A stretch of DNA of 60,481 nt from a plasmid. The notes under the pieces are model-generated. The model worked only from the letters and a program-made list of their open reading frames with translations, was not told the DNA's origin and did no database searches. This document shows, in pieces, positions 1,460-21,149 of the stretch; the first letter of the stretch is position 1; each line of letters starts with the position of its first letter. The DNA lies in sequence record NZ_CP024182.1, one strand, 5' to 3'. Position numbers and translations under genes: made by a program.

Positions 1460-1497
1460 GGGGTCTGCACAGAATTCGGATCATATAGCACGCTAAA
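1460..1497 (+). repeat. Tn3-family 38-bp terminal inverted repeat (solo end, GGGG outer terminus at 1460)
   Basis: ggggtctgcacagaattcggatcatatagcacgctaaa begins with GGGG and ends with ACGCTAA(A/G), the Tn3/Tn21-family IR signature. Its outer 21 nt match the IRs of the intact transposon at 25325 and 29305 in 20 of 21 positions. Confidence 0.7.
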
Positions 1498-1690
1498 GAA
1501 TTTTGTCGAATTTTGTTACAACAAAGCGTCTATTACTTACGTAACAATCCCACGAAAAACAATTGTTTTTCGTGATTTTGTATATCAGCGCCAATTCGGC
1601 GCTTTTTTATCATGTTTATTTCATGATAAAGCCATAGTTATCTAAATATGATAAGATTGGGTAATTATCTTTTATCGTGAGAATTTTACC
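1498..1690 (+). promoter_or_regulatory. Putative res (resolution) site region upstream of tnpR
   Basis: It lies between the IR and the resolvase start, as in Tn21-like elements. It contains the subterminal motif aattttgtcgaatttt and a perfect 24-bp palindrome cacgaaaaacaattgtttttcgtg (about 1551-1574). It also contains the A/T-rich promoter-like stretch ttatcatgtttatttcatgataaa. Confidence 0.4.
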
Positions 1691-2296
1691 ATGAGTTTAA
1701 TTGGTTATGCCCGAGTGTCAACTTCTGAAGGGAAGCAGTTACTCGATCGTCAAGTTGATGCGTTAAAAGAAATTGGCTGTGAACGAATTTTTGAAGACAA
1801 GGCATCAGGCAGTAATTCCCAACGTAAAGGATTGGATGATTGTCTCAACTATTTGCGAAAAGGGGATGTGCTTGTTGTTTTGGATTTGGATAGGTTAGGG
1901 CGATTAGCCAGTGATCTTATAAAGTTGATTGATGAACTCGCTGAAAAAGACATTGGCTTTAAAGCCATCAATTCACCGATGGATACCACAACCCCTGCAG
2001 GTCGGGCGTTTTTACAAATTCAAGCGGCGTTTGCCGAGATGGAGCGTAATATCATTCGTCAACGGGTGAAAGAGGGGATTGCGGCTGCTAGGGCTCGGGG
2101 GCGTAAAGGCGGCAGACCTAGAATTATGACGGCTGAGAAACTTCGTTATGCTCAGCATCTGATGCAAGACCAAACCAAAAGTATTCCTGCGATTTGCAGG
2201 GAGCTGGGTGATATTCCCAGCAGTACGCTGTACCACTATGTGACGGCGAAAGGAGAGCTTAAAAAGGCAGGGTTAGATTTGTTAGCACATGAATAA
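1691..2296 (+). CDS. tnpR: Serine recombinase (resolvase TnpR)
   Basis: 201 aa. The N-terminus MSLIGYARVSTSEGKQ contains the catalytic Ser-Arg motif of resolvase/invertase enzymes, and a C-terminal HTH is present. It is about 80% identical over its length to the second resolvase at 28460-29071. Confidence 0.9.
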   Translation: MSLIGYARVSTSEGKQLLDRQVDALKEIGCERIFEDKASGSNSQRKGLDDCLNYLRKGDVLVVLDLDRLGRLASDLIKLIDELAEKDIGFKAINSPMDTTTPAGRAFLQIQAAFAEMERNIIRQRVKEGIAAARARGRKGGRPRIMTAEKLRYAQHLMQDQTKSIPAICRELGDIPSSTLYHYVTAKGELKKAGLDLLAHE

Positions 2297-2402
2297 TTAT
2301 CAGTAAGCATGAGCAAGTTATCTTGACGATTTGGCATTTTACTACTAAGATTTACAAAAATGTATTTACAATACTAAATAGATTGATTTAAAGTAGGCTT
2401 AA

Positions 2403-2699
2403 ATGAATTTTTCTTGGGATGAGAATAAGGCTGCCAGTAACTTTGAAAAACATAGTATTAGCTTTGAAGAAGCCATGCTCGTATTTGCTGACCCTTTTCT
2501 TTTGATGAGCCAAGATAGAATCGAAAATGGTGAAATGCGATGGCAGAGTATAGGAGAAATTGAAGGCATTGCTGTTATTCTGGTTGCCCATACTTGGTTT
2601 GATGATGACGGTGAGGAGTATATCCGTATTATTTCAGCCCGTCCTGCAGATAAGAAGGAAAGGAAACGTTATGAGCAAAATCGTTACTCGAAGTATTGA
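2403..2699 (+). CDS. brnT: BrnT-family toxin (type II TA ribonuclease, DUF497)
   Basis: 98 aa beginning MNFSWDENKAASNFEKHSISFEEAMLVFADP, the conserved BrnT N-terminus (FxWDxxKxxxNxxKHGxSFEEA). Confidence 0.8.
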   Translation: MNFSWDENKAASNFEKHSISFEEAMLVFADPFLLMSQDRIENGEMRWQSIGEIEGIAVILVAHTWFDDDGEEYIRIISARPADKKERKRYEQNRYSKY

Positions 2700-2976
2700 T
2701 TTAACCAATCCGCCTAAATTAAGCAAAGAAGCAAAGGCTCGTCTTGCTAAATTAAATGAGGCAGACATTGACTATTATGATATCCCACCGTTGACGGATG
2801 AATTTTGGGCGAACGCTGTTAGCAATCCGCTTTATAAGCCAACCAAACAAATCGCCACGGTACGCATAGACAGTGACGTATTGCTATGGCTCAAGTCTCA
2901 AGGCAAGGGTTATCAAACTCGGATGAATGCTATTTTAAGACAGGCGATGTTAACTGAGTTGGCAGAAACGCATTAG
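2671..2976 (+). CDS. brnA: BrnA-family antitoxin
   Basis: The ATG at 2671 overlaps the end of brnT, the typical TA coupling; the 138-aa track ORF from 2560 is an upstream over-extension. The C-terminus RIDSDVLLWLKSQGKGYQTRMNAILRQAM matches the BrnA RHH-like C-terminal signature. Confidence 0.7.
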   Translation: MSKIVTRSIDLTNPPKLSKEAKARLAKLNEADIDYYDIPPLTDEFWANAVSNPLYKPTKQIATVRIDSDVLLWLKSQGKGYQTRMNAILRQAMLTELAETH

Positions 2977-3214
2977 TCACCTACGATATCTGCTAACCCA
3001 AGTTTTTGTTTTAAAGGTAAATTTATGGGTTTGTTAGACGCTATTTAATAGACAAGTTAATTGACAAAAATAGGGGCGATTTGCCCCTGTTTTTTTGTGG
3101 AAATTGAAGTGTCTAAAAAACCAGCGTTTTATAAACACCTTGACCATTATCATTTTTATAAATACTTGATTAATTTCCTTAGCGTACTATTTTCTCCGCA
3201 TTCTGTGCTAATCC

Positions 3215-3312
3215 CAGTCTCAACTGTGAGCGTAGTTTGAATAGCAGTTTGCAATTTGTTAATTTGGCGTTCATTGCTCTGTTATTAAAAAGATTATGAA
3301 CAGGTTCTAACC
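3215..3312 (+). mobile_element. Remnant 3' end of an IS5-family (IS427-group-like) element
   Basis: The region translates to NCERSLNSSLQFVNLAFIALLLKRL*, nearly identical to the C-terminus of the IS5-family transposase at 35075-35602 (NCERHLNSSLQFTNFAFIALLLKRL*). It is followed by the same terminal sequence aagattatgaacaggttct. About 100 bp remain. Confidence 0.6.
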
Positions 3313-3327
3313 CCTAATGAGCTAGAT

Positions 3328-5352
3328 TTAAGATGTTTTTCTCATCAACCACATAAAGTACACACCACCTATGATAGCTGCGATTGTGCCTGCAGGGATT
3401 TCATAAGGGAAAATCACATACCGACCCAACCAGTCAGCCATTACCATCAAAATTGCCCCAAATAACATACTAATCGGTAATTGTTTATTAAGATTAACCG
3501 CCCCAAAATAAGTTGCCAAGTGTGGTATCATCAGCCCCACAAAACTTAACGGACCAACTGCTAGGGTAGTCGCTGTACTTAAGCCAGCAATCACCAACAG
3601 GACAGCCATATCTGCCATCCGAATACCAAGCCCTAACGACCTGGCGACTGAACGCCCTAGGCTCAATAATCGAAGGGGTTCAATTAATAGCCAACCGCAA
3701 GTGACTAAGATAATGGCAAAGCCGATAAGCCACCATACGGTTTCAGGTCGGGCACTATACGTTGTGCCAGATAGCCAACTTAATATCGATTGGAGTCTTG
3801 GGTCGCCTGCCAAATTGATTAAGCTTAGGACACCATTCATCAACGCCCCTATCGCCACCCCAACCAAAATTAAATAATCCGAGCTTAATTTTTTAGACAA
3901 CATTAAAATTAGCCACAAGGTTGCCAATGCACCCACAATACCACCGACAAAAATACTACCCAATGCCAGTGGCAAGCCTAATAACGAGGCAATCAGTAGA
4001 TAAATCAGCACCCCCACCGCAGAGCCAGAGCTGATACCTAGCACTTCAGGGCTTGCCATCGGGTTTCGGGTATAAGATTGAATCATCACACCTGCCGTTG
4101 CCAGCATAATTCCTGTGGCAGCCGCACTAAGCGTTCTGGGTAAGCGAAATTGATAAATCATCTCGCTATCCCATGATAGCCCCCAACCGCCCGTATGGAT
4201 ATTTTTGGTAAACCCCAATGCCATCATAATAATGACAAACAATGCCAAACTTAAACCTACATAAGTCATGGGAGTAATGGCTCGCTGGCGATAGTGGGTA
4301 AAAGTCGCCGTATCACCGAGCGTTTGGTGACGCTGCCGTAAAATCACCCAAATAATCAAAGGTGCACCCAAAATACCTGTGATTGCCCCCACAGGAATCA
4401 CCACAGGCATTTTCTGCATGAGCATCATCACCACATTACTGGCAAACCATAACAGCCCACCACCGAGCAAAAACCCCAATACCAACCGACTGGCTAACTG
4501 TCGTACCCGACTGATATTAACCAAAGTTGCCGCACCCAGCCCCACAAAGCTTAACACCCCAACCTGACTGACAACCAAAGCCACTAGTACCGCCACCAGT
4601 ACCAATACCAATGCTCGTATCGTGGAGATAGGCACACCCAGACTTTTGGCTTGGGTATCATCCAAGCTCATCAAGCTAAGTGGTTTGAGCAAAGGAACAA
4701 CCAAAAGGGGTAGAGCGATTGTGGTAATGGCAAGTAACTGGGTACTTTGCCAACCAAGTTGAGAGAGCACACCCCCGCCCCAAACCATGACGCCCAAGGA
4801 TTTTTCCGAAAAAAACAACATCATTAATGAGGACAAAGCTGAAAAGAAAATATTAATAATCAAGCCAGACAAAACTAAAACCACAGGATTAAAACGGCTT
4901 GGCATCGCCATAAGCCACACCAGCCCCATACTCATAAGTGAGCCAATCAGTGCCACCCAAAAATTACCATACAAGCCAAGATTCGGCAAAAACAAGGTGA
5001 CAATCAACAGTGCCATTTGAGCACCGCTACCCACTGCCAATGTGGTATCCGAAGCCAGTGGATTTTTTACCAGTTGTTGTAGTAACAGACTGGCAACCCC
5101 CAGTAGCCCACCTGCCATGATAGCTACCAATGTGGTGGGTAACAGCTTGAGCTGTGTGGCTAACTCCTGCACGCTTAACTGTTGGCTTGCCGTAAACAGA
5201 TGAGCAATAGGGGCATGCCATAATTGAGCGAATAGATAATAACTACTAGCAACAATCAGCCCAAGCCAACATATAATGCCAACAAATTGCTTAACAAAAG
5301 ACTTATTCACAACACGGCTACGGGTATTTTGGGTGATAACGCTTTTTTTCAT
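3328..5352 (-). CDS. Iron-siderophore ABC transporter permease, fused double FecCD domain (FhuB-like)
   Basis: 674 aa, very hydrophobic, with two repeated permease halves. It forms an operon with an ATPase and a binding protein. Confidence 0.85.
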   Translation of the reverse strand: MKKSVITQNTRSRVVNKSFVKQFVGIICWLGLIVASSYYLFAQLWHAPIAHLFTASQQLSVQELATQLKLLPTTLVAIMAGGLLGVASLLLQQLVKNPLASDTTLAVGSGAQMALLIVTLFLPNLGLYGNFWVALIGSLMSMGLVWLMAMPSRFNPVVLVLSGLIINIFFSALSSLMMLFFSEKSLGVMVWGGGVLSQLGWQSTQLLAITTIALPLLVVPLLKPLSLMSLDDTQAKSLGVPISTIRALVLVLVAVLVALVVSQVGVLSFVGLGAATLVNISRVRQLASRLVLGFLLGGGLLWFASNVVMMLMQKMPVVIPVGAITGILGAPLIIWVILRQRHQTLGDTATFTHYRQRAITPMTYVGLSLALFVIIMMALGFTKNIHTGGWGLSWDSEMIYQFRLPRTLSAAATGIMLATAGVMIQSYTRNPMASPEVLGISSGSAVGVLIYLLIASLLGLPLALGSIFVGGIVGALATLWLILMLSKKLSSDYLILVGVAIGALMNGVLSLINLAGDPRLQSILSWLSGTTYSARPETVWWLIGFAIILVTCGWLLIEPLRLLSLGRSVARSLGLGIRMADMAVLLVIAGLSTATTLAVGPLSFVGLMIPHLATYFGAVNLNKQLPISMLFGAILMVMADWLGRYVIFPYEIPAGTIAAIIGGVYFMWLMRKTS

Positions 5353-5354
5353 TT

Positions 5355-6380
5355 TTACCCCTTTGGCTTGGTCGTGTTTGACAATGGTGGGGATGACAGG
5401 TTTGGCGGTGCCACGCCTTGTAAGGGCGTTTGGCTTAAGTGGTCAGCAAATTGACGCATGGATGCGATACCCCCACCATATGACCAAACAGGGTCTATTA
5501 TAGCCATACACCGCTTATGACCAAAGCCAAGTTGTTGCCATAGCACGCTTTTATCAAGTTCGGCTTGTAGCATATGACTAAAGGGTTTTATCACTATCAG
5601 ACAACTGTCGTTCTCAAGTTTTGCCAATTCTGCTAACTCAATATTACTAAAGCCCCATTTATTGCCTTGATGAAAGTTGACAAGCGATACGCCGAGCTGG
5701 TCAGTTGTAACTTTAAATAGACTATTGTCAGCATACAGACGTAAATGCCCTGCATCCGCAAACTGTACGATTGCCAATTTTTTGATATTAGGATAACGAT
5801 GCCTAAATTGCTGTCCTTGCTGTTGTAAGACCTGCTGACTTTGGGTAAGGTAAGTCTGTACTCGTTCATTGCCTTGTGGGTTGCCAGCATCTTGCAAGAT
5901 TTGACCCAGTGCTATGGTAGCGTTGGCAAAGTCTTGCCAAGTAGCAACATCTCCTTTGGCTTTAAAAAGCACGGACTTGGTAGGCACACTGCCATACATC
6001 GGGCGGATATGCTCATAAAAAAAGTTATCAATCACCAAATCGACATTCAGTTGTGCGATAAGCTCTGGGTTGGGTTGATAACGAATACCAAGGTCAATGG
6101 TCTGCTTGGGTAGTGGTTTTCCCATCCATTGCTCATACATTCGCAAGTCGCCTGTGGCAATGGGCGGATAGCCCAAAGCTGTTAGTTCGGCGGCAATTCC
6201 CCAATCAGGGGTCAGAATGCGTGTTGCTTGTGTCGTATGCACAGAGGCAGGCGTATCACGGGTGGCAGTGGTCGTGTTAGAATGACAAGCGACTAGAACA
6301 AAGCCCAGTAAAACATTGCTAAAACAACGGCTTAACTGAGCCAATCGATTATGGGTCGTGTATTGGCTGGTTTTTGTCAT
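5355..6380 (-). CDS. Periplasmic siderophore-binding lipoprotein (FhuD/FecB-like)
   Basis: 341 aa. It has a lipobox-like signal (LLGFVLVACHS). Its stop is 3 bp from the permease start and its start overlaps the ATPase stop. It belongs to the class II substrate-binding family by context. Confidence 0.75.
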   Translation of the reverse strand: MTKTSQYTTHNRLAQLSRCFSNVLLGFVLVACHSNTTTATRDTPASVHTTQATRILTPDWGIAAELTALGYPPIATGDLRMYEQWMGKPLPKQTIDLGIRYQPNPELIAQLNVDLVIDNFFYEHIRPMYGSVPTKSVLFKAKGDVATWQDFANATIALGQILQDAGNPQGNERVQTYLTQSQQVLQQQGQQFRHRYPNIKKLAIVQFADAGHLRLYADNSLFKVTTDQLGVSLVNFHQGNKWGFSNIELAELAKLENDSCLIVIKPFSHMLQAELDKSVLWQQLGFGHKRCMAIIDPVWSYGGGIASMRQFADHLSQTPLQGVAPPNLSSPPLSNTTKPKG

Positions 6381-7141
6381 AAGATTGCCACCTTGTAGTC
6401 ATGTTCAGGGTGGTCAATCAAGCGTAATGACACCCCAAATATCGACTCAAGCACCGCTTGGGTCATAGTATCTTGCACGCTACCAAGATGACAGAGTTTA
6501 CCGTCTTTAAGGGCGATGATATCATCACAAAACTGAGCCGACAGATTGATATCATGGATAATCAATACCACGCCCAATTCACGTTCTTTTGCCAACTGAC
6601 GTAATAAACGTAAAATTTCGACTTGATAGACAATATCCAATGGGGCTAAAAGTTCATCAAGTAGTAGATAGCGGGTTTGCTGTGCTAATGCCATGGCAAG
6701 CCACGCCCTTGCTCGCTCACCACCCGACAACGATGCAACCGTCTGTGTCGCCTTATGCTGAATTTGGGTTTGGTGCATACTGTGTTCTACAATATCTCGG
6801 TCGGCTTGGACGGGCTTACTAAGCCAGCGTTGCCAAGGGTAACGCCCCAACATCACCAGTTCTTCCACGGTAAATGCGTGGGTCGCAGGTAAATTCTGCG
6901 GTAGATAGGCGATTTTTCTGCCCAATGCCTTACCGCCTAATTGTCGTAAAGGCGTATCATCAACACGGATATCACCGTGTGAAGGTAGTATTTCACCTGC
7001 CATCAATTTGATGAGTGAAGATTTTCCAGAGCCATTTTGACCAATAAGGGCATACAGTTTGCCTTGGGCAATATCACAGGAAATGTCTTCAAGTATGGGG
7101 GTATTACTTTGTTGCCAAGCGACTTGATTGATTGTCAGCAT
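6377..7141 (-). CDS. Iron-siderophore ABC transporter ATP-binding protein (FhuC/FecE-like)
   Basis: 254 aa with Walker A GQNGSGKSS and the ABC signature LSGGERARA; a Walker B region (LLLDE) is also present. Confidence 0.9.
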   Translation of the reverse strand: MLTINQVAWQQSNTPILEDISCDIAQGKLYALIGQNGSGKSSLIKLMAGEILPSHGDIRVDDTPLRQLGGKALGRKIAYLPQNLPATHAFTVEELVMLGRYPWQRWLSKPVQADRDIVEHSMHQTQIQHKATQTVASLSGGERARAWLAMALAQQTRYLLLDELLAPLDIVYQVEILRLLRQLAKERELGVVLIIHDINLSAQFCDDIIALKDGKLCHLGSVQDTMTQAVLESIFGVSLRLIDHPEHDYKVAIL

Positions 7142-7237
7142 CGAGTATCTCGTCTAAATTTTAAGAACTTTGTTACAATGAATAACGCTGATTAATTATT
7201 AGCGTTAAAGTTAAGAATCTGCCATAGCGATGCTCTA

Positions 7238-8326
7238 TCATCGCCAATAAACTTTTAAAACCATCTGTTGTCTATTCATTGCTAAGGCCTGTTGCAACCA
7301 AGGTCTTAGCGTTTTGACCAGTCTTGCTTGCAGTCCGCCCCACACGCTGTCAAAGGTCATCTGTTCATCCAGTAATTGCTGAATATGTCCTTGTATGTCA
7401 TGGCTATCATAATGATTTATTTGAATTAAGCGATAAGGCGTGGCACTTGTACTGTGTGATAAATAAGCCTGTTCGGTGGCATTGTGGGTCATGACCATCA
7501 CCACAGGTGGGATAGGATTTTGCCATTGCTCAAGTAACCGTGCCACAGTTGGTAACGATGTTTCATCCGCTATAAGCAAAGCTTTGCCATCATGTAAATG
7601 ATGAACATGCTCGGCAAACTCTCGCTGGGTGGTGATGGTGTCGCCAAGCTTGCGAGATGTTGCCCAACGACTGCCAAGATTATCACCATGCACATAGACA
7701 TCTATCCAAACTTGAGCATTTGATGTGGTTTGGGTGACTTGACGAAGGGTGTAATAACGGTGTGGTCGGGGTCTGCTATCTTTGGTTTTATCAACCAATG
7801 ACTCATCGATATCAAATAAATACGCATAGCCTGCTTGGTCAATGACTGTATCGTTTGGTGCAGTTAATACCATGCGATACATATTCTCGGTCACAAAAAA
7901 CCCTTGTAGAAAAGTAAATTTTCGCTCAAGCGTCTGAATCGGCAATCTACCCAACTGACGTTGACTACGCTCTAGGACTTTGACATACGCCATCATCAAA
8001 TCTTCTAATTGCTCAATGGGTTGGTCAAAATCCACCCATAAGCGGTGCAAAACAGGCAAGGGCTTTTCTTGGCTTGGCGTATTGGCTATGGCGTTATGAG
8101 TGGCGAACTGGCAGACCTTCATCTCAAAGCCATGGTGATAAATCTGCTCAACCGACACAGCAATTTGCTGAGATAGCTCACCCAGCTTGGCTTCGGCTAT
8201 CGTCCGTAAGTCATGGGTATGCTCATCATTAATGTGCGAAATAATGTCTGCTAAAAAAGGGGTAATATTAGGGTCACTGATAGGTGTAGGTGGCAATGTT
8301 TGCATAGTAAGATATTTTTGATTCAC
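7238..8326 (-). CDS. Siderophore-interacting protein / ferric-siderophore reductase (ViuB/SIP family) with N-terminal extension
   Basis: 362 aa. The C-terminal half carries RPHRYYTLRQV (the SIP FAD-binding RxYT/S motif) and an NAD-binding-like segment LLIADETSLPTV. About 170 N-terminal residues have no call. Confidence 0.55.
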   Translation of the reverse strand: MNQKYLTMQTLPPTPISDPNITPFLADIISHINDEHTHDLRTIAEAKLGELSQQIAVSVEQIYHHGFEMKVCQFATHNAIANTPSQEKPLPVLHRLWVDFDQPIEQLEDLMMAYVKVLERSQRQLGRLPIQTLERKFTFLQGFFVTENMYRMVLTAPNDTVIDQAGYAYLFDIDESLVDKTKDSRPRPHRYYTLRQVTQTTSNAQVWIDVYVHGDNLGSRWATSRKLGDTITTQREFAEHVHHLHDGKALLIADETSLPTVARLLEQWQNPIPPVVMVMTHNATEQAYLSHSTSATPYRLIQINHYDSHDIQGHIQQLLDEQMTFDSVWGGLQARLVKTLRPWLQQALAMNRQQMVLKVYWR

Positions 8327-8405
8327 TGATTTAAACTCTGCTAAAACCCTTTATCATCTAAGCAGATAACGTTTTTGGCATAGCGTTGCATAGGGTTTTG
8401 AAAAT

Positions 8406-8525
8406 TATAGTAAAAACTGAATTATAATGAACAAGGTCATTCATGGTGAGCCTGTCGAAGCATAGCGACCGCCACCCTTCGACAGGCTCAGGGCGAGCGG
8501 TGCTCATTTTAATTTCCGATTAACT
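8406..8525 (+). repeat. Copy 1 of an approx. 120-bp conserved intergenic element (unknown; stem-loop containing)
   Basis: About 80% identical, without indels, to 25115-25233. It contains a perfect 13-bp inverted repeat gagcctgtcgaag ... cttcgacaggctc. It lies between the convergent ends of the receptor gene and the SIP gene. Confidence 0.45.
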
Positions 8526-8548
8526 ACAGAAAGTAGGCAAAAGACGGT

Positions 8549-10915
8549 TTAGAACCAGTTTAGGCTATATTGAAGCCCATAAGTCCGCCCTTGGGCTTCT
8601 TGCCCTGCCAAAGGACCTGCAATCGCTTCAGCAGTTTGGTTAAACACGCTGCGGTAGCGAGTATTGCCGATGTTATACACCCCAAACGCCAAATCCCCTT
8701 TAGGTAGTTTGATTTGTCCTAACAAATCTAGGGTGGCATAGCCAGTGATTTTTGCCTCACTGGATTTGCTAATATTGTCATCCACCGCTGCAACTAGCAT
8801 GTCGTTGTAAGCCTTATCGGTACCACCAATTGCAGTGCCTTGTAGGCGAAGGCTATTGCCTTGCGGGAATGTATATTGTGCATAAGCGGTTGCTTTAAGG
8901 GGGGTGACGCGAAATGCCCCTAAGTCACGCCATGCCCCTGCGGCATCTTTATATTCGCCTTTAGTATAAGCAAGACTAGAACCTACTGACCATTCTTGAT
9001 TAAATCGGTGATTGATACTGGCTTCTGCCCCATAGATTCTCTCATCAGTATCAGCAGCGATGACATTAAAATCTTTGGTAAACTGCACCACTTTATCTGA
9101 GGTATTATAAAACCCCACCACTTTGGCTTTGGTTTTGTCAAAATCACCCTGCCAACCTAATTCATAATTATTGACTGCAATCGGTGCAACCGTATCAGAA
9201 TTGACCTTAAAGCCGACATTCACATCTCGTAGTACTCGCTGAATATCGGGCAGATTAAAGCCTTGGGAAAAGTTGGCAAAAATTTTCTGCTGGGGTGCGA
9301 TGTTATAACTTGTCCCAAGATTAAATAAGGTTTTGTTATGCTTGGTTTCACCTGCAGGCACACTACCTGCTTGATAAGTCAAGTTGAGCTGAGCCAATAA
9401 ATCTTGTAATTGGGCTTCGTTACGAGTGGTAAAGGCATCCGTCTTAGTGGTGATGTTTTGGTGGCGAACACCGCCACTCACATGCCATTTATCTGTGACA
9501 TCAGCATCTAAATTAACAAATGCCCCTACCTTATCAATGGTGCTGTTTGGGCCTGCGGTGTAGCGTGTATTATTTGGCTGAATCTTCAGCCCATTACTGT
9601 CAATAAAGGTTTTAAGGTCATTACCATCGTAATACTGCTTGTCTGTTTCTCGCTCAAAGTCAGCACCATAGCTCCATAAGAGCTTTTTATCTTGCCATGT
9701 ACTGGGAGTTTGCATGGCGGCACGCAGTCCCATCACATTGATATCGGCTGTTGATTGCAAGATACTGTAGGCACTGTTTGCCAGTTTCTTTTTATATTTG
9801 TCTTTGGTTGCGTTATCAACCGCCAAACTGTCAATCAAGGGATAGGCAGGTTTGATCGATATGGGGGCAGGTGTCGGATAATAGCGTCCGTCTTCTTGAC
9901 GATAATAACCTGTCACGTTCAGATTAGAGCCTTTGATATCACTGTTATTATAATTTAGGCTCACGGTGGATTTTTTGGTAAAGGGTTGATTGTCTAATTG
10001 CAACCCTTTGATGGCTTGCATTGATGGTGTATCGCCTTTGAGTAGCACACCTAACCCTTTGCCATAATCAGGGGCATAGTCGGTATCTTGTTGGTCTTTA
10101 TAGTAAGTAGCCGCCAAATTGATGTTTTGTGTGGGTGTGGCTTGATAGTTGAGATTGGTGTTGACGCTCAAACTATCAGTATCTTGTAAATCCGTTTGCC
10201 AAACTTCTGGGGCAATGCGTTTATTGTCACTATCAAAGCGTCCACCCCTTGATTCATAATCCACATCTACTCGGGCGTTAAGCTTGTCATTACCAAAAGT
10301 CACTGTCTGCCCAGCACTATAACCCAACGCCTCTTTGTTAAAATTATTATTGGTCGATATGCCAATACGACTTTCACCATGTAGCCCTTGTTGGTAGCTA
10401 GATTTGGTCACTAGATTAATCAGTCCACCTGTCGCTCCAGACCCATAGATACTGGTTGCTCCTGATAAAACTTCGATACGCTCTAACTGCTTAGGGTTGA
10501 TGCTATTGATTTGGCGTGAAATATCTCGAGAGCCTGTCAATGGTACGCCATTGATAAGGTATTGGACAGGTCTGCCGTGCATGGTCATCCCAAAGTTACT
10601 CGCCGTACCACTGCCTGCACCTAAGCTTGGCACAAGTTGTCCTAAAACATCAATGACGGTACGACCTGCTACTGCTTGTTGGGAAATTTGTTTTTCGCTA
10701 ATGACTTGGGTGACTTCAGGCATTTCACTGATTTTTTGTGCCAATACCGTGCCTGATTTGATTCCGGCGTAGAGTGTCAACTCATCCAACGTTGTGGTAG
10801 GTATATCATCGTTCGCTGATATTTGTGCTTTGGCGGTTTCAGCATGCAGTTGTTGGTTAACCGCAACTGCTAGCAGGGTCACTATAAAAGCTTTTTGGTA
10901 CATAAGAATCCTCAC
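8549..10915 (-). CDS. TonB-dependent siderophore outer-membrane receptor
   Basis: 788 aa. It has a signal peptide (MRILMYQKAFIVTLLAVAVNQQLHA), a TonB-box-like DELTLYAG, and the terminal aromatic residue (…YSLNWF) of TonB-dependent receptor barrels. It is Fur-box regulated. Confidence 0.9.
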   Translation of the reverse strand: MRILMYQKAFIVTLLAVAVNQQLHAETAKAQISANDDIPTTTLDELTLYAGIKSGTVLAQKISEMPEVTQVISEKQISQQAVAGRTVIDVLGQLVPSLGAGSGTASNFGMTMHGRPVQYLINGVPLTGSRDISRQINSINPKQLERIEVLSGATSIYGSGATGGLINLVTKSSYQQGLHGESRIGISTNNNFNKEALGYSAGQTVTFGNDKLNARVDVDYESRGGRFDSDNKRIAPEVWQTDLQDTDSLSVNTNLNYQATPTQNINLAATYYKDQQDTDYAPDYGKGLGVLLKGDTPSMQAIKGLQLDNQPFTKKSTVSLNYNNSDIKGSNLNVTGYYRQEDGRYYPTPAPISIKPAYPLIDSLAVDNATKDKYKKKLANSAYSILQSTADINVMGLRAAMQTPSTWQDKKLLWSYGADFERETDKQYYDGNDLKTFIDSNGLKIQPNNTRYTAGPNSTIDKVGAFVNLDADVTDKWHVSGGVRHQNITTKTDAFTTRNEAQLQDLLAQLNLTYQAGSVPAGETKHNKTLFNLGTSYNIAPQQKIFANFSQGFNLPDIQRVLRDVNVGFKVNSDTVAPIAVNNYELGWQGDFDKTKAKVVGFYNTSDKVVQFTKDFNVIAADTDERIYGAEASINHRFNQEWSVGSSLAYTKGEYKDAAGAWRDLGAFRVTPLKATAYAQYTFPQGNSLRLQGTAIGGTDKAYNDMLVAAVDDNISKSSEAKITGYATLDLLGQIKLPKGDLAFGVYNIGNTRYRSVFNQTAEAIAGPLAGQEAQGRTYGLQYSLNWF

Positions 10916-10975
10916 TCAAATCTAACAAATTATTTTGGTTTTGTAACAATTGAGTAATATTAGCACATATAATTA

Positions 10976-11656: not shown

Positions 11657-11671
11657 ACCTTGTTGAAAAAA

Positions 11672-13750: not shown

Positions 13751-13752
13751 TG

Positions 13753-15696
13753 TTACCCCTGCTTCAATTTAAACTGAGACAATGGATTGTCTAGCCATTT
13801 GATTGGAAAATCACGGTCACCAAATAATCGACGTTTTGCCAGTGATTCAATTCTGGTTTTTTCAGCAAACAAGTCAAAGCACTGATAGCGAGATTGATGT
13901 TCGGGATAGCGTTTTGCAAAGGCATGAATACTATCAGCCACTTGTTGCCAAAATACGGCTTCTGAATAGTGATAATGGGTCTGTAAAAAAATAGCAATAT
14001 CAGCAAATGCCACAAAAAACAGACAAGCAACCGTCATATCACGAATACCTGCGGTATCGTCTGTTTCGATAAATGAGCCACGATTAAGCCTTGCATGTGC
14101 CTGTGGTAGTTGCTCTAAGATAGGTTTGGCATTAGGGTGAGTCAGCTTATCGGGGCAAAAGCGAATGCCATCATGCAAATCTTTCAGTAGCACCTTGATG
14201 GGATAGCCATCATCATGCACCAAAACGATATTTTGGGCATGGCACTCCAATGCAATGCCTTGGGCAAATAGCATATAAATAATCGGTGTAACCGTCACGT
14301 CAATCAGTTGCCTCACCCAATCTGCCATGTCATAACGTTGCAACCAACTGTCAATCAAAGGTTTGCCATTTGGCTGAATATAACTAATACCATTGAGCGG
14401 GAATGCTGACTGCCCTTGCCCTAAATACTGATGAACATTTTCACGCCATATACTTGCCAAACCGCCATAGATTGCAGGGTGATGATAGCCTTGCTGTTGT
14501 AAACGTTCGTGGTTTAGACTCACCCCCATGACTTCCCCCAAGAAATTCACTTGCAAATCCACGGCTTTCTTGTCGTTCGCCACCAACGTTTTTAGCCAAT
14601 GAGTAATGGTTGCACTATTTAATACCGTATGTTTTGCCAAAATGCGGGTACTTGATGTATTCACCAAGTGCATTGCCAATTTCAGATAAGGCGACGGCAA
14701 TAGGGCGTGTTTTTCATTATCAGCAGGGCGATAAGCTAAGGTACGAATCGACTGCTGGGCATAATAATCCATACCAACTTCACCAAGATAGACCACTTGA
14801 TGCGTTTGCATTAGGGGTGTCAATGCCTCTATTAATGTCGCTTGCCACTGCCAAGGATGAACAGGGACGAACGCAAAATGCTCAACAGCTAATGCATATT
14901 GCGATAGCCGTTCACACAACTGCTCATAAATCTCATCACCAAGATATTGGCGACACCAACTATCATAACCAAACTCTTGCGTGGTATTGGTTACCAATAG
15001 CTCTGTATTGACAGCCAGCCACACCAATTGTATCGGATGGGCAAATTCTGGACCAAAACGGTAATTATCCTCTAGGCTAAACCCAAGTCTTGATTTATAA
15101 CAAGGGTGATACGGATGTCCAAAGTCCAAATAGCCTTCCAACTCATCGTAAGCCATCTCGTGTAGTTGTTTGATATGTTGCTGTCTATGGTGGCGTGATT
15201 GACAATCATGGATAAACGTTTGACGCAATTCTTTGATAAAACTGTCTTTAAGCGTTGCCTCTTCTAATGGCATTAACACATCATTAATGACATCATCAAG
15301 GTGGGCTGTTGTTTGCATACCTTGATAAGTTTTGGTTACAGGCGTATCAGATAAGCGAATCATGCCAAAGCTAAAATGCACTCGCCCAATGGCTTTATAT
15401 ACCACGTCGTTCGGACACGTGATACTAAACTGAACTAGGCCCTGCTCAAGACTTGAACGCTCAACCACACATACGTTTGACAAAATATCTTCAAACAATA
15501 ATGCCTGTAACAACTGGCGGATAACCCGTTGCTCAACTTCGTGAATAATTGCAGTATCCAGTGGCGACTGCCACACTTGCAAAGCGTTAGATGTCAAAAT
15601 ATTCCCCTTAAATTTATGATTGTTGTTGATTGATAAAACTACTCGATGTTCTTGGTAATGCAAATGCAAAGGGCAAACTAAGCAATAACATCCCAC
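13753..15696 (-). CDS. IucA/IucC-family NIS synthetase (second paralogue)
   Basis: 647 aa, beginning 3 bp after the previous synthetase. The annotated start is GTG and overlaps the MFS gene by about 80 bp, so the true start may be internal. Confidence 0.8.
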   Translation of the reverse strand: MGCYCLVCPLHLHYQEHRVVLSINNNHKFKGNILTSNALQVWQSPLDTAIIHEVEQRVIRQLLQALLFEDILSNVCVVERSSLEQGLVQFSITCPNDVVYKAIGRVHFSFGMIRLSDTPVTKTYQGMQTTAHLDDVINDVLMPLEEATLKDSFIKELRQTFIHDCQSRHHRQQHIKQLHEMAYDELEGYLDFGHPYHPCYKSRLGFSLEDNYRFGPEFAHPIQLVWLAVNTELLVTNTTQEFGYDSWCRQYLGDEIYEQLCERLSQYALAVEHFAFVPVHPWQWQATLIEALTPLMQTHQVVYLGEVGMDYYAQQSIRTLAYRPADNEKHALLPSPYLKLAMHLVNTSSTRILAKHTVLNSATITHWLKTLVANDKKAVDLQVNFLGEVMGVSLNHERLQQQGYHHPAIYGGLASIWRENVHQYLGQGQSAFPLNGISYIQPNGKPLIDSWLQRYDMADWVRQLIDVTVTPIIYMLFAQGIALECHAQNIVLVHDDGYPIKVLLKDLHDGIRFCPDKLTHPNAKPILEQLPQAHARLNRGSFIETDDTAGIRDMTVACLFFVAFADIAIFLQTHYHYSEAVFWQQVADSIHAFAKRYPEHQSRYQCFDLFAEKTRIESLAKRRLFGDRDFPIKWLDNPLSQFKLKQG

Positions 15697-17029
15697 CTAT
15701 TAATAACAATAGCTCCTGTAAAATGCCGACCTCATTAACGGCTTGTGTTTGACGATAATTGACATACGCCATCGCAAGCCAAATCACCAACCCTGAACAT
15801 ATTCGGCGACTGATATTATTGAGCGATGCACCCTCTGTAACTTTATCAGCAGGCAGTTGGCTAAAACCAACGGTCGTGGTTGGGATATAAGCAAGCCCTA
15901 CGCCCAATCCATGCACACAAACCCATATCACCACAGCAATGATAGAAATATCCACCAACTGCCAAGCCAAACCAAAACTTGCTGATGCGGTCAATATCAC
16001 ACCCCAACAACCGAGCAATCTAGCACCCTGTTTGTCAACAATTTTGCCCACTAATTGCGTGGTAACACTGGCTATCAAGGTTGATGCCATCAACACCCAC
16101 CCCGTCCATGTGGCAGGGTGGTGCATGACTTGTTGTATCAGCATTGGCAACAAGATTAAATACAGCATCAAGCCGATGGTTTGCGTCACACTGATAATGG
16201 TGCAATAGCGATAGATACGATTATCAAAAATGTTTACCTGTAACAAAGGGGTCGCATGGTAATATTCATAGAGCCACCAACGATAGCTACCATAACTCAG
16301 TATCCCACCCAGTCCGATCATGGCAACCATCATCCACTCAGAAAATTGAGCAGTATATTGATGAGCCATACGCTCCCACACAAAACCACCCAGTAGCAAC
16401 AAGCAAAGCCCTAACAAGCCTTTTTTATCCAAGTTTCGTTGCTGGATTTTAGCTTGCTGATGTGGTAGATAATGCCAGACCAAAGCCCATGCCAATCCCA
16501 TCAAAGGCACATTGATAATAAACAACACATCCCAGTCATACCACTTGAGCAAGTACGCTCCAACCAATGGACCAATTGCCAAGCCCAACATCACCACCAT
16601 ACCCCACAGCCCCATCGTCTGACCTTGACGCTGATGTGGTACGATTTGGTACAATATCCCCACCGATAAAGGAATCAAAATACCTGCCGCTAGACCCTGT
16701 AAAAACCTAGCCCCACTCACCCAATCAATACTGGGTGAAAAATAGCCCATCATTGACCCCAAACCAAAGATCGCAAGGGCAGTCAAATACAATGTTTTTC
16801 GGGCAAAAATTGTCGCTAAATAACTCACCATGATTAGCCCGATTGCCATGGCAATCACATAAGCATTTAATACCCAACTAGCGCTCACTAGTGGAACACC
16901 AAACACTTGCATAAACAGTGGGATAGCGGGGTTTAATGCACTATTGCTGAGACTGACGACTACACCGCCAAGTAGGAGCGAAAAAATCACAGCAGAATTT
17001 GACAGTGACTGTGGTGTGTGTTTTGACAT
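15614..17029 (-). CDS. MFS transporter (probable siderophore exporter)
   Basis: 471 aa with about 12-14 predicted TM helices. It is located inside the biosynthetic operon, as in aerobactin/rhizobactin-type clusters. Confidence 0.75.
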   Translation of the reverse strand: MSKHTPQSLSNSAVIFSLLLGGVVVSLSNSALNPAIPLFMQVFGVPLVSASWVLNAYVIAMAIGLIMVSYLATIFARKTLYLTALAIFGLGSMMGYFSPSIDWVSGARFLQGLAAGILIPLSVGILYQIVPHQRQGQTMGLWGMVVMLGLAIGPLVGAYLLKWYDWDVLFIINVPLMGLAWALVWHYLPHQQAKIQQRNLDKKGLLGLCLLLLGGFVWERMAHQYTAQFSEWMMVAMIGLGGILSYGSYRWWLYEYYHATPLLQVNIFDNRIYRYCTIISVTQTIGLMLYLILLPMLIQQVMHHPATWTGWVLMASTLIASVTTQLVGKIVDKQGARLLGCWGVILTASASFGLAWQLVDISIIAVVIWVCVHGLGVGLAYIPTTTVGFSQLPADKVTEGASLNNISRRICSGLVIWLAMAYVNYRQTQAVNEVGILQELLLLIGGMLLLSLPFAFALPRTSSSFINQQQS

Positions 17030-17062
17030 ATCAGCAATTACCCATACGACCCTAAGCTAGGA

Positions 17063-17677
17063 TTACAAAGTATCTGTGATTGTTGGATAAAAACTTTGAT
17101 AGCCATTTGATTGATAAAAATCCTCACGATGACAAAAGTACAAACTGGCTTTTTTCTCAGGCATCTCAATATAGCGTTGCAAAAAATAGCCAAATTGCTT
17201 TGTCACCCATTGATATAACTCAATGCTGCTATCTGGCTCTACCACAATTTTAGTTGCCTCAGTATGTTCAAAAATAAACTCTGAAATCAGCATCCCTGTC
17301 GGTTTTAGGTAGCCTCGACCCACCGCATCCGTATTACCTAACAATAAATGCCAGCCAATATCACTATCTTTAGCTTGGTAATAGCGAGCAAGACGGTCAC
17401 GTTTGGCTTCATAAACTTCGGTATAGCCAATATCCACCCCATCGCAGACAACGATGTATAGACGCTGGTGGTCATCAGCAAGAGCTTTTTCGATATGGGC
17501 TTTAAGTGCTGGCATTGGCAGGTGTAATTGCCATTGAGCGACAACATGTTCGGCGTGCATCCATTGGTAAATCAATGGCATATCTTCAGGATAGCGTAAC
17601 GCACGCAAGCAAAAGGTTTTTTGATAAAAATTTCGACTAAATTGATTGGGTAGCTGTGTCATCATCGCTGATTTCAT
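17063..17677 (-). CDS. IucB/RhbD-like N-acyltransferase for N-hydroxy-amine acylation
   Basis: 204 aa. It is immediately downstream of the N-monooxygenase with a 1-bp gap, a GNAT-like size. Its position is equivalent to iucB/desC/rhbD. Confidence 0.65.
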   Translation of the reverse strand: MKSAMMTQLPNQFSRNFYQKTFCLRALRYPEDMPLIYQWMHAEHVVAQWQLHLPMPALKAHIEKALADDHQRLYIVVCDGVDIGYTEVYEAKRDRLARYYQAKDSDIGWHLLLGNTDAVGRGYLKPTGMLISEFIFEHTEATKIVVEPDSSIELYQWVTKQFGYFLQRYIEMPEKKASLYFCHREDFYQSNGYQSFYPTITDTL

Positions 17678-19060
17678 TTATGGCACCTCATCATGTGACA
17701 CATTGTTAGCATGACCGAAAGTTTGGAATACCGTCAAAGCTTGCGTATCAAAATAAGGCTCGCCCAAAATTTGATTGGCAATCACCCCTGCTCGATACGC
17801 CCCCAGCCCAAGGTCGGGTGTACCTATGCCATGACTGTGTAATTCTTGATTTTGTACAAACACTTCCCCAACATGCTCTGTTGATGAACCCAATATCAAA
17901 CGATAATCATGGCTAATTTTGGGCTGTCCCAAAGTCGTTGTTGTCACTTCTGGCATCAGAGCATCCATACAACTTGGGAATTGATGTTGATAACCTGTTC
18001 CAGCGATAATACAATCATAAGTCTTTTGGCAAGACTGCTGTTGCTGACGTTGAAAAAACTGCACCGCTAAACGCTCATCGACTCTTACCACGGAATCAAG
18101 CTGACAGTTTGCCATCAAGGTGCAATGCTGAGGACGATTACCTATGGTACGTTCATACAGTAGCTGATAAATATCTTGAATCGTGCTCATGCCCATGCCT
18201 TTATACATCAGACCTTGTTCACACAGTAGTTGAGCCTTGATAGACTCATCCAAATGGTAGTAATACTCTGTATAAGCAGGGCTGAAATGCTCCAACCCAA
18301 GTGGCGAATACTCCATCGGAAAAAACCCTGACGACCGTGTTACCCAGTCTAGCTCATAATTAAGCTTGCTATCGGTGTACTGCTGTTGCAACAGATGACG
18401 ATACACTTCAGCTGAGGACTGCCCTGACCCGATAACCAAAATATGTGGAATATCGATGTGCTTTTTTAGTGCGGACAAATCAAACTGACGGGCAAAGTTA
18501 GCAGAGTGCATACAACGATTAGGCATGTCATTAGCGACAGCCTGTAATACTTTCGGCAAGGTCGGCTGTGTACCTGTCCCAATGACCACATGACGAGCAT
18601 GGTAGCGGTGACTGATGCCATTTTGTATGACAGTAACCACATAGCCCACGCCACAGCTGGATTTTTCGACACTTTTTACATGACTATCAAAAACCACATT
18701 GGGTAATTGATGAGCAGCCCATTGGCAATAATCATTGTATTCCTGACGAGGGATTTTGAAATTTTCTAAAAAATAAAACTTTAACAGTCTTTTTTTATGG
18801 CTTAAATAATTCAAAAAACCATACCGACTGGTGGGGGCAACCAACGTCACCAAGTCAGCAAAAAATGGGACTTGGAGCGTAGTTTTTGGTAACAACATTC
18901 CTTCATGCCAATTAAAATCACTATTTTTTTCAAAAAACAGAGAAGTTATATTAGAGGTTACTGCTTTTTTTGATTCATTCGCTTGCACAAGCAAGGCAGC
19001 CAAACTTAAATTAAAAGGACCTAAACCAATACCAATGACATCAAGCACAATGCACCCCAT
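17678..19060 (-). CDS. Lysine/ornithine/diamine N-monooxygenase (IucD/RhbE family, FAD-dependent)
   Basis: 460 aa. The N-terminus has the FAD-binding sequence GIGLGPFNLSLAALL and a second dinucleotide motif HILVIGSGQSSAE. Confidence 0.85.
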   Translation of the reverse strand: MGCIVLDVIGIGLGPFNLSLAALLVQANESKKAVTSNITSLFFEKNSDFNWHEGMLLPKTTLQVPFFADLVTLVAPTSRYGFLNYLSHKKRLLKFYFLENFKIPRQEYNDYCQWAAHQLPNVVFDSHVKSVEKSSCGVGYVVTVIQNGISHRYHARHVVIGTGTQPTLPKVLQAVANDMPNRCMHSANFARQFDLSALKKHIDIPHILVIGSGQSSAEVYRHLLQQQYTDSKLNYELDWVTRSSGFFPMEYSPLGLEHFSPAYTEYYYHLDESIKAQLLCEQGLMYKGMGMSTIQDIYQLLYERTIGNRPQHCTLMANCQLDSVVRVDERLAVQFFQRQQQQSCQKTYDCIIAGTGYQHQFPSCMDALMPEVTTTTLGQPKISHDYRLILGSSTEHVGEVFVQNQELHSHGIGTPDLGLGAYRAGVIANQILGEPYFDTQALTVFQTFGHANNVSHDEVP

Positions 19061-20861
19061 TATTTAATTGACGTGAATAAATAGGTTGTAATGGATTTGG
19101 CACATTGACATACACAGATTGGGTTTCAACAGGTGCAGTCAATTCATCCAACCCTTGCATACGGGTCAATAAATTACCCTTAAAAGGAAGCATGTCCTGT
19201 CTAAGCAATAGCTCAAATAACTCTCGATGAGGATAGCGTTGTTCTAATGCCATCAATCTATTGACGAGTTGCGTGAGTAGTTGCTCTTCGCTTGCCCAAC
19301 CTGTACGTGCAATAGCAGTGATAAGTCCAAATAGATGGTTGGCGATAATATAATAAGCAAATCGCTCATTGGCAAAAAATTCAGGCACAACACATTCTGC
19401 CTCATCCATTAAGGCGGGTATTTCATCTATTAATGAGCCTGCGTACTCGGCAATATAGCCAAACCCTTGATTATCCCTTACCCACAATCGGCTTGGATAA
19501 TAATCCTTTAACTCAAGCAAGCTATTTTGTTGATGGGCTTCAAACCCCAACCCATGTTCATAATAAAGCGACACTAATGGCTCAAATCCTACTTTTAAGT
19601 AGCTGTCAAACCAGTCGCTAGCAATGACTGTGTTATCTTGGGCAGTATTTGCTTTAATCGCTTGGAATAATGTCTTAATTCGATTGGTACATCGAGTCGG
19701 ATGGTCTTGGCATAAACTGGCTAAATTTGAAACTTGTATAGATGGGTCAAATGGATTGTCCCTTAAAATACAAATGGTTTCATTAATAACCTCACCATCA
19801 ATGGTGAGTGCAAGCCAAGCAGGGTCATTAATGACTGACAAGGTGGGGTATTGTTGTTTTAGACGTTTGCCAAACTCACTTCGCCAGATTTGACAAGCAT
19901 AATAGCCACGCTGACACTCTTTGGCTAAATTGATTCTGACTGAATTGGTAATAGCAACTGATAGGGAAAGCTTGAACATCCAAGGGGCATCAAAACTGGC
20001 AAGCGTTCTGACCGAAGTGGTCGGTGATAGATACCAGCCCATTGCTCCTAACGGATAGATTTTTTGCTGTTGAAACAACGTTTCATACCAAGGTTGCTGT
20101 TGCAAAAATCTTGCTTGCCAAGGATGTAATGGCAACAACCGATAATCTGTGTGTTGCTGTAGCATTTTTTGCTGATAGTCTGTTAAATAAGGTGTGAGCT
20201 TAGTTAATAGCTCTTGATAAATATCTTCACCGTCCACCCAGTTACCTGTAACATAATCTGACTGCACCAACCAATAGTTAAGTTGGAATTTACTTTGTGT
20301 TTCAGGGGCGTATTGCTCCCATTCTTGTGCATAAAAACCATCTCGACCTTTGGGCGTTGGGTGCATGGTGTGACCATATATGAGATTTTGTTCCGTCTCC
20401 ACAAAATTTAATTCTGCACTGACAATATCATCAATATTATCTAAACGATGGGTAAGTATCTTGCCTAACCCTTCATAACTTTGTAACCAACGCCCTAACA
20501 CCTCATGTGATTTATCAGTAGTGGATTGGGTGTTAGATGATAATTGATAATAAGCAATACTTTGTAATACCAATGTTGCCACTGTTGATGCAGTGTAATC
20601 ACAGCTTTGACCATTCAAAAATACCGTCGGCTCTTCCAAAAATCGTACATTACCTAGCTGACTTACCTTGTCAATAGGCACTCGTAATAACATTGACGTA
20701 GGCAACAAAGGCACTTCAAGTAAGGGTTGACGTTGTGAAAAATTTAAACACGCTTCATTTTGCTCTGAAACCTCTATATAACGCCCGACCCCAAGTTCAT
20801 AGCAATAAGCGTTGATTAGATTTTGTAAAGCCAACCGATTTTGAATCTCAGTCTGCAACAT
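19041..20861 (-). CDS. IucA/IucC-family NIS synthetase (third paralogue, first gene of operon)
   Basis: 606 aa. It overlaps the monooxygenase start by 20 bp. A Fur box lies about 45 bp upstream. Confidence 0.85.
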   Translation of the reverse strand: MLQTEIQNRLALQNLINAYCYELGVGRYIEVSEQNEACLNFSQRQPLLEVPLLPTSMLLRVPIDKVSQLGNVRFLEEPTVFLNGQSCDYTASTVATLVLQSIAYYQLSSNTQSTTDKSHEVLGRWLQSYEGLGKILTHRLDNIDDIVSAELNFVETEQNLIYGHTMHPTPKGRDGFYAQEWEQYAPETQSKFQLNYWLVQSDYVTGNWVDGEDIYQELLTKLTPYLTDYQQKMLQQHTDYRLLPLHPWQARFLQQQPWYETLFQQQKIYPLGAMGWYLSPTTSVRTLASFDAPWMFKLSLSVAITNSVRINLAKECQRGYYACQIWRSEFGKRLKQQYPTLSVINDPAWLALTIDGEVINETICILRDNPFDPSIQVSNLASLCQDHPTRCTNRIKTLFQAIKANTAQDNTVIASDWFDSYLKVGFEPLVSLYYEHGLGFEAHQQNSLLELKDYYPSRLWVRDNQGFGYIAEYAGSLIDEIPALMDEAECVVPEFFANERFAYYIIANHLFGLITAIARTGWASEEQLLTQLVNRLMALEQRYPHRELFELLLRQDMLPFKGNLLTRMQGLDELTAPVETQSVYVNVPNPLQPIYSRQLNNGVHCA

Positions 20862-20904
20862 AAATTTCCCTAAAATTTAAATGATAATGATTTTTAGTTT
20901 GCAA

Positions 20905-20925
20905 ATGATAATCATTATCATTTAA
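20905..20925 (-). promoter_or_regulatory. Fur box at the siderophore biosynthesis operon promoter
   Basis: aaatgataatcattatcattt, with the core gataatcattatc matching the Fur consensus. It is flanked by additional gataatgat repeats (20881-20935). Confidence 0.7.
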
Positions 20926-21111
20926 TTCTTCAACTATTTATTTTTTATTTATGATAATTGCATTAAATTTTACCCAAAATTCAAAAAATCGAGCGTTAAG
21001 AAATGGTGTCGAATATTTGAGATACCCTAATAATGTCCAAAAAAACGCTCGTTTTTTGGATAGGTTTCCTATCATCAAGCTGATAAATTATCGACAAAAT
21101 TCCTTAATTTA

Positions 21112-21149
21112 CCTTAGCATATTATTTTCTCCGTTTCTGTTCTAACCCC
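21112..21149 (-). repeat. Tn3-family 38-bp terminal inverted repeat (solo end facing left; GGGG terminus at 21149)
   Basis: The reverse complement is ggggttagaacagaaacggagaaaataatatgctaagg, which matches the Tn21-type IR pattern GGGG…ACGGAAAAT…GCTAAG. The inner flank carries the subterminal motif aaggaattttgtcgataat, also present next to the IR at 25325. Confidence 0.6.

Follow-up and report, generated by a model that had tools for sequence, protein, structure and literature searches.

The segment at positions 1460-21149 of the Moraxella osloensis plasmid sequence NZ_CP024182.1 (60,481 nucleotides, analyzed over its whole length and referred to here as the window) carries a hydroxamate siderophore locus between two inward-facing terminal inverted repeats (IRs) of the Tn3 transposon family. 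Our analysis indicates that this segment is a patchwork of independent Tn3-family leftovers, not a transposon, and that the siderophore genes appear to spread by exchange at a resolvase site, a reading to which we assign a probability of roughly 0.8. The IR with its tip at 1460, ~90 bp of adjoining interior, and the left half of a putative res site I are the sole remnant of an element once inserted in a plasmid recombinase gene. At the putative res site I palindrome (1551-1574), this stump now continues into a module made up of res, the resolvase gene tnpR, a toxin-antitoxin (TA) pair, and an IR ending at 3215 (res-tnpR-TA-IR), and the IR with its tip at 21149 is the stump of an element other than that of 1460. 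Comparisons were drawn from PLSDB plasmids, the contigs examined, genome_contigs, and metagenome_contigs, with loci labelled L002 to L034.

An initial annotation of this DNA had left two options for the paired ends at 1460 and 21149: two independent Tn3-family relics or a degenerate, non-autonomous unit of 19.7 kb. The former is borne out by inner IR sequences that differ, by the lack of a target-site duplication, by the independent presence and absence of the two ends in related replicons, and by the missing half of the 1460 insertion site.

The left-hand block and the putative res site I

The features of the left-hand side are as follows.

1190-1459, minus strand: serine recombinase pseudogene of the 187-amino-acid type, residues ~75-181, with in-frame stops, cut off by the 1460 end
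1460-1497, plus strand: solo Tn3-family IR with GGGG tip at 1460, sequence GGGGTCTGCACAGAATTCGGATCATATAGCACGCTAAA
1551-1574, no strand: perfect 24-bp palindrome with left half CACGAAAAACAA and right half TTGTTTTTCGTG, putative res site I, ~103 bp from the IR tip
1575-1690, plus strand: rest of the res-like region, with a GC hairpin and T-run at 1587-1609 and repeated TTATCGTGA and TCATGATAA-like motifs upstream of tnpR
1691-2296, plus strand: tnpR, 201-amino-acid serine resolvase (Pfam PF00239, E = 9.6e-46)
2403-2699, plus strand: brnT, type II toxin (PF04365 BrnT_toxin, E = 2.5e-25)
2671-2976, plus strand: brnA, antitoxin (PF14384 BrnA_antitoxin, E = 1.8e-17), overlapping brnT at 2671-2699
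3020-3177, no strand: IR-proximal segment with a terminator-like hairpin and a palindrome, conserved whichever TA pair is present
3178-3215, minus strand: third Tn3-family IR, its tip decayed to GGGA at 3215, reverse complement GGGATTAGCACAGAATGCGGAGAAAATAGTACGCTAAG

The res-tnpR-TA-IR module is present in many M. osloensis plasmids; on the right it stops precisely at the IR tip, and on the left precisely at the putative res site I. In megablast searches, more than fifteen plasmids start to match the tnpR region at window positions 1544-1556. An alignment of nine upstream regions places the beginning of conservation exactly at the 1551-1574 palindrome, and 1575-1690, which may contain the accessory subsites (sites II and III), is conserved in the same alignment. 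Seven unrelated left flanks were present among 15 loci scanned, with divergence directly outside the 11- to 12-nt left half-site. Hybrid half-sites were found in L002, L003, L013, and L031, and the left half-site of Fic-linked copies is divergent (AGTTAAAATAA). Locus L034 is a reciprocal hybrid, in which the 1460 end and the left half-site are joined at the center of the palindrome to unrelated DNA. An analogous palindrome lies ~107 bp from the IR tip of the intact Tn3-family transposon found elsewhere in the window (25325-29305). Recombination at res site I would leave breakpoints of this kind, with the palindrome as the putative crossover site.

Resolvase-mediated exchange between res sites yields hybrid Tn3/Tn21-family transposons and mosaic plasmids. 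The M. osloensis plasmids resemble such products in their sharp homology edges at a palindrome upstream of tnpR, their hybrid half-sites, and the occurrence of reciprocal products. They differ in that the site here is a putative one and in that the exchange partners are mostly plasmid backbones, not two complete transposons. The position of the res crossover at site I is summarized by Lima-Mendez et al. 2020 (PMC7157771).

The DNA to the left of 1460 records the original insertion. The recombinase remnant was identified by blastn to a recombinase gene of pNP7-2, and its translation holds stops. By tblastn, residues 75-181 of the recombinase were located at 1190-1458, and residues 1-74 were absent from the whole window, in which the only matches were to the two tnpR genes and the known remnant; the gene is continued neither at 3216 nor at 21150. 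Because residues 1-74 are nowhere in the window, the far side of the original 1460 insertion has been lost. The left flank is identical in all copies of the 1460 end that were found, namely, in pYHS2, in three further contigs, in the single match in genome_contigs, in the single match in metagenome_contigs, and in pNP7-5, which keeps 17 bp of the flank. Exact-match scans of genome_contigs and metagenome_contigs (one match each, with the same left flank) revealed no independent insertion of the 1460 IR. That every copy found shares its left flank points to a single ancestral 1460 insertion.

The two ends named in the initial annotation read as described there, each being 38 bp long with a GGGG tip. 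The shared subterminal motif AATTTTGTCGA is present at 1499-1509 (plus strand) and 21091-21101 (minus strand), and, as had been noted, 20 of the 21 outer nucleotides of the 1460 end agree with the IRs of the intact transposon (25325 and 29305); over the full IR the agreement is 32/38 positions. The 1460 and 21149 IRs, put earlier at about 65% identity, agree at 26/38 positions with one gap (~67%), and their inner sequences differ. The annotation had further described these ends as enclosing tnpR, brnT/brnA, and the siderophore genes without a transposase. This content is supported by Pfam and by the annotation of pYHS2; the picture was nonetheless incomplete, since the third IR at 3178-3215 had been overlooked.

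The 3215 IR is inverted relative to that at 1460, to which it is 29/38 identical, and it is 32/38 identical to the 21149 IR. The block from 1460 to 3215 is 1,756 bp long and consists of IR, res, tnpR, brnT, brnA, and IR, without tnpA. Because the third IR closes this block, the siderophore locus lies outside it, on the outer face of the 3215 IR. In the sister contig locus L027, the tip of the 3215-type IR is intact (GGGGTCAGCAC, GGGG) and its outer 21 nt equal those of the intact transposon's IR. Across plasmids the 3215 tip is joined to at least three different right-hand sequences, as expected if these junctions were made by transposition.

A degenerate Tn3-IR pattern gave 6 matches in the window, compared with 0.19 expected from shuffles. 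Besides the intact transposon, the 60-kb circle carries four solo Tn3-family ends (1460, 3215, 21149, and 40917) and one IR fragment. The 1460 end lies in the plus orientation and the ends at 3215, 21149, and 40917 in the minus orientation. As the only plus-oriented solo end, 1460 faces inward with each of the three minus ends, and 21149 is not its nearest inward-facing partner. No 5-bp duplication was found for the end pairs, whose flanks read TATTA (1460), AGTCT (3215), and TATAT (21149); the earlier report of no clean repeat outside 1460 and 21149 (TATTA versus TATAT) was thus accurate.

Within the module, tnpR shares 74% nucleotide identity with the tnpR gene of the intact transposon. The TA slot (~2305-3020) holds brnTA, relE/mqsA, or gp49/HI1420 in otherwise homologous modules (the window compared with L002, L025, L029, and L032). 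At the edges of the slot (~2305 and ~3020), visual inspection of the alignment, without a pattern search, revealed no recognizable Xer/pdif-like or other recombination sites. The IR-proximal segment includes a palindrome, GTCTAAAAAACC..CGTTTT.TAAAC, at 3111-3136, ~90 bp inside the 3215 tip. The palindrome is found at 3444-3469 of L008 and lies upstream of the gene for a 187-amino-acid serine recombinase in pNP7-2, and the homology of L027 to the window begins exactly at 3111. The 3111-3136 palindrome may be a candidate crossover site for a second recombinase family. A similar palindrome is present at 21036-21061, ~100 bp inside the 21149 tip. Separately, an exact 11-nt GGGGTTAGAAC, equal to the tip of the 21149 IR, was seen at 3304-3314 (minus strand) just before the fhuB stop codon, with no further IR similarity around 3304-3314.

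The siderophore locus and the 21149 end in related replicons

The features of the siderophore locus and its promoter side are as follows.

3328-20861, minus strand: hydroxamate siderophore locus independent of nonribosomal peptide synthetase (annotation of pYHS2 and six sister plasmids)
20872-20930, inverted repeat: Fur-box-like palindromes of the GATAATGATTATC type in the siderophore promoter region
20965-21111, minus strand: remaining interior of a Tn3-family element otherwise lost; siderophore plasmids not of the window type cease to match at ~20950-20964
21112-21149, minus strand: solo Tn3-family IR with GGGG tip at 21149, reverse complement GGGGTTAGAACAGAAACGGAGAAAATAATATGCTAAGG
21150-21167, minus strand: 18-nt internal IR fragment of the 25325/29305 type, 16/18 identical to 29278-29295
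21182-22590, plus strand: IS3-family insertion sequence with 26-bp IRs and no 3-bp duplication

The siderophore locus encodes an FhuB-type ABC importer, SIP, a TonB-dependent receptor, three IucA/IucC enzymes, IucD-like and GNAT enzymes, and an MFS transporter. In pYHS2, the annotation of the stretch between the two ends includes no transposase gene. The Fur consensus is established knowledge, and by comparison with it the palindromes at 20872-20930 probably function as Fur boxes. The siderophore core (3160-20957) is 98 to 99% identical among plasmids.

Comparison of related plasmids, which the initial annotation had proposed as a way to refute a mobile unit, showed that the ends are separable and that the siderophore locus occurs without them. 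Five loci (L002, L003, L004, L005, and L007) have the siderophore locus with neither end; they belong to plasmids of strains DOX410, KMC41 (pMOSL1), NBRC 115781, FDAARGOS_1130, and NP7 (pNP7-6). These plasmids share the window from 3025/3160 to 20957/20964 at 98 to 99% identity and differ after ~20964. Contig JABAHL010000009 (L023 and L027) has the 21149 junction and lacks the 1460 end and tnpR. In L030 (CP040257.1, 2.98 Mb, chromosome-sized), a siderophore copy lacks the 1460 end and instead has IS66 elements adjoining it at the res site. Movement of the 19.7-kb block as a unit was not found in PLSDB or the contigs examined, where the block occurs in the same backbone context only. The siderophore locus has the res-tnpR-TA-IR module as its constant left neighbor and occurs in at least six different left-hand contexts.

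Two large replicons, L026 (LR732800.1, 2.65 Mb) and L030 (2.98 Mb), have the siderophore locus with tnpR-brnA neighbors inside them, and L026 also has a Rep3/ParA backbone, which suggests plasmid integration or an assembly join. In L004 (NZ_CP068110), a complete res-like region and a 25325-type IR without tnpR lie at ~23000-23260, ~300 bp from the siderophore promoter. This relic is another independent Tn3-family stump beside the siderophore locus.

The 21149 end and its interior amount to a ~185-bp stump. Beyond ~20964, other siderophore plasmids read GTAAGCATCC... or enter an IS630-family element. Relative to L009, L014, L017, and L023, the 21149 IR lacks 1 nt (a T in a homopolymer run). Its tip directly abuts the 18-nt IR fragment, which is followed by 14 bases, and the IS3-family element starts 32 bp past the tip. 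In pNP7-2 (L009), 21066-21182, comprising the IR and its outside junction, is present without siderophore genes. The 21149 end with its outside junction is an older relic that is also found apart from the siderophore genes. A Tn3-family transposase by the siderophore promoter in L019 was considered as a partner for the 21149 end and rejected, as it is part of another element, which has an IR of a third type and has inserted into the IS3 copy.

A second IS3-family copy was detected in a repeat scan at 29766-~31162, in direct orientation and ~88 to 89% identical to the first. The two copies bracket an alkyl-sulfatase gene and the intact Tn3-family transposon. Because neither has a 3-bp duplication, a rearrangement mediated by these insertion sequences is suggested.

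Proposed origin of the mosaic and its closest known systems

One explanation for the paired ends would be a degenerate non-autonomous composite unit spanning 1460-21149, which brought the siderophore locus and could be moved by TnpA in trans. In its favor, the two Tn3-type ends face inward, both have GGGG tips, and they share a subterminal motif; the IRs of the resident TnpA are 32/38 identical to the 1460 end, and non-autonomous Tn3-derived composites have been shown to transpose in Pseudomonas (PMC4133298). These composites, termed TIME-COMP after the Tn3-derived inverted-repeat miniature element (TIME), provide the model behind the 19.7-kb unit in that two Tn3-derived ends mobilize the DNA between them. 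The ends of TIME-COMP, however, are whole, near-identical TIME copies flanked by 5-bp duplications, whereas the window has solo stumps matching at 26/38 positions, the 21149 IR with a 1-nt deletion, and TATTA and TATAT in place of a duplication. Moreover, the window lacks the rest of the gene into which the 1460 end inserted, a third IR (3215) lies inside the proposed unit, related replicons carry the two ends independently of each other, and the 21149 end, together with the junction outside it, is older and is found without siderophore genes. Relatives carry the siderophore locus without these IRs, including the chromosome-sized L030 copy without the 1460 end, and the block is seen only in the same backbone context. 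A composite unit is thus very improbable, and that alternative of the initial annotation is not supported. It is comparably hard to credit that the siderophore segment is an unresolved cointegrate remnant, with same-direction transposon copies at 3215 and 21149 marking a fusion of replicons. These two ends do point in the same direction, and no other pair of solo ends is as similar (32/38, one gap), but copies left by a cointegrate should be identical, and here the IRs differ by ~15% and the DNA inside them is unrelated, whereas the siderophore genes are 98 to 99% conserved. Many siderophore plasmids also carry the 3215 end without the 21149 end. We reject the cointegrate model because the two ends have diverged and are independently distributed.

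The 1,756-bp block at 1460-3215 could instead be a mobile cassette that acquired brnTA and transposed next to the siderophore locus. A precedent that was captured experimentally is TIME-RES, the resolvase-carrying Tn3-derived inverted-repeat miniature element of Szuplewska et al. 2014 (PMC4133298). Like it, the block has two imperfect ~38-bp Tn3-type IRs (here an inverted pair alike at 29/38 positions), res, and a resolvase gene, and lacks tnpA; it looks like a hybrid, portable site-specific recombination cassette. The whole block also recurs in pNP7-5 (L006), which carries 1443-3215 without siderophore genes and beside different right-hand DNA. Against such a transposition, TIME-RES was captured with a 5-bp duplication, whereas the block has none in either copy, its flanks being TATTA/AGTCT in the window and TATTA/TAACA in pNP7-5. 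The block further differs from TIME-RES in carrying a TA pair and in having IRs that are less alike (29/38, compared with 8 mismatches in 40 bp). Since the two copies share 17 bp outside the left IR, their left junction was inherited rather than newly made. The right flank of the pNP7-5 block is common to L010 and L012, two loci that have no 1460 end and that carry other DNA on the left side of res, and exchange at res therefore explains the pNP7-5 block better. We regard transposition of the 1460-3215 block to the siderophore locus as unlikely.

Several points weigh against our own interpretation, in which a patchwork of leftovers was assembled by res-site exchange. Sharp homology edges could arise otherwise, from a conserved functional module, and the palindrome is a putative resolvase crossover site, assigned from reading the DNA. 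The 1460 and 3215 ends form a formally intact, TIME-RES-like inverted pair around res and tnpR, and rare mobilization in trans of 1460-3215 or of 1460-21149 is possible. In addition, 8 of the 10 contigs with the 21149 junction were recovered through exact identity of one IucA allele and thus sample one lineage; the 21149 junction may or may not be the ancestral right-hand one. More than 1,200 contig sets contain the IucA or FhuB alleles.

Under the res-site exchange interpretation, an element with co-directional IR-res-tnpR-tnpA-IR organization would have inserted into a recombinase gene of the plasmid backbone. A res-tnpR-TA-IR module would then have recombined with it at res site I, replacing everything to the right of the crossover. 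The module itself would be the right-hand half of a Tn3-like transposon whose tnpA half was lost, and it may serve the plasmid as a stability cassette for multimer resolution and addiction. With the res site acting as a swap point for left-hand DNA, the module and the attached siderophore genes would come to lie on several backbones. At ~20950-20964, on the side of the siderophore promoter, a stump that already abutted an older IR fragment would have been attached through a deletion or an illegitimate join, and IS3 activity may then have diversified the sequence beyond that junction. The earlier suggestion of a role for Tn3-family activity in how the siderophore genes arrived is plausible in this form, with the points of exchange at the res site of the res-tnpR-TA-IR module and not at the IRs that had been named. 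We also entertain, as a tentative extension, that this tnpA-less half-transposon is a shuffling and stabilizing adaptor that moves the 17.6-kb siderophore island between unrelated backbones via site I, with the TA slot behaving as a cassette and 3111-3136 perhaps providing a second recombination port for the 187-amino-acid recombinases.

TA pairs embedded in the transposition module of Tn3-family elements, with TA modules apparently exchanged, were surveyed by Lima-Mendez et al. 2020 (PMC7157771), whose text does not mention BrnT. The TA pair in the window likewise adjoins tnpR and res. The pairs in that survey are mostly upstream of the resolvase gene, whereas the module described here has its pair downstream of tnpR, lacks tnpA, and holds any of three alternative pairs in the slot. 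It is a new instance of a Tn3 module that bears a TA pair and lacks tnpA, and it adds a Moraxella case with BrnT/BrnA to the known association of TA pairs with Tn3 resolution modules. A literature search on M. osloensis siderophore plasmids returned nothing relevant.

Reading the segment as a mosaic prevents the recording of a nonexistent 19.7-kb "siderophore transposon." It also gives a testable account of how an iron-uptake island spreads among plasmids of a skin and household commensal, through resolvase-site exchange, insertion sequence activity, and deletions. In kind this is ordinary plasmid mosaicism with a tidy res-site exchange signature, and it holds nothing unexpected for the field.

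The intact transposon and the plasmid setting

The remaining features of the plasmid that bear on its Tn3-family content and backbone are as follows.

101-718: ParA gene (Pfam)
25325-29305, minus strand: intact Tn3-family transposon of 3,981 bp, IR-res-tnpR-tnpA-IR, with identical 38-bp IRs, GGGG tips, and the target-site duplication TAATA
40880-40917, minus strand: degenerate solo end of Tn3 type (tip GGAG, motif AATTTTGTCGA), flanked by genes for a PhzF-like protein and an autotransporter
58546-59649: Rep3 gene (Pfam)

The window is a circular Rep3/ParA plasmid of M. osloensis. A contig of FFTB-42985 joins 57040-60481 to 1-1578, and the circle is thus closed. The first 25.1 kb of the window is collinear with pYHS2 (NZ_CP024178).

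The window has just one Tn3-family transposase gene (25439-28396, Pfam), which lies in the intact transposon. This element encodes a TnpA with DUF4158 and DDE_Tnp_Tn3 domains and a serine resolvase, and it has no passenger genes. It sits in a hypothetical gene whose uninterrupted empty site is found in pYHS2, and it is 100% identical to a copy in pYHS3 over the 3,004 bp compared. By these signs the element has been recently active, and it is the only demonstrably active Tn3-family element in the window. It resembles co-directional res-tnpR-tnpA transposons of the Tn21/Tn501 type in its identical 38-bp IRs, 5-bp duplication, and serine resolvase, and differs from them in being minimal (3,981 bp, without passenger genes). 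The solo ends were already on the plasmid when the intact transposon inserted. If the 25325-29305 element shows target immunity, as several Tn3-family members do, it can be argued, weakly, that the resident TnpA does not recognize the solo ends.

A 113-bp insertion resembling a miniature inverted-repeat transposable element is present at 25119-25231 and absent from pYHS2; an 81%-identical copy lies at 8406-8526, between the SIP and TonB-receptor genes.

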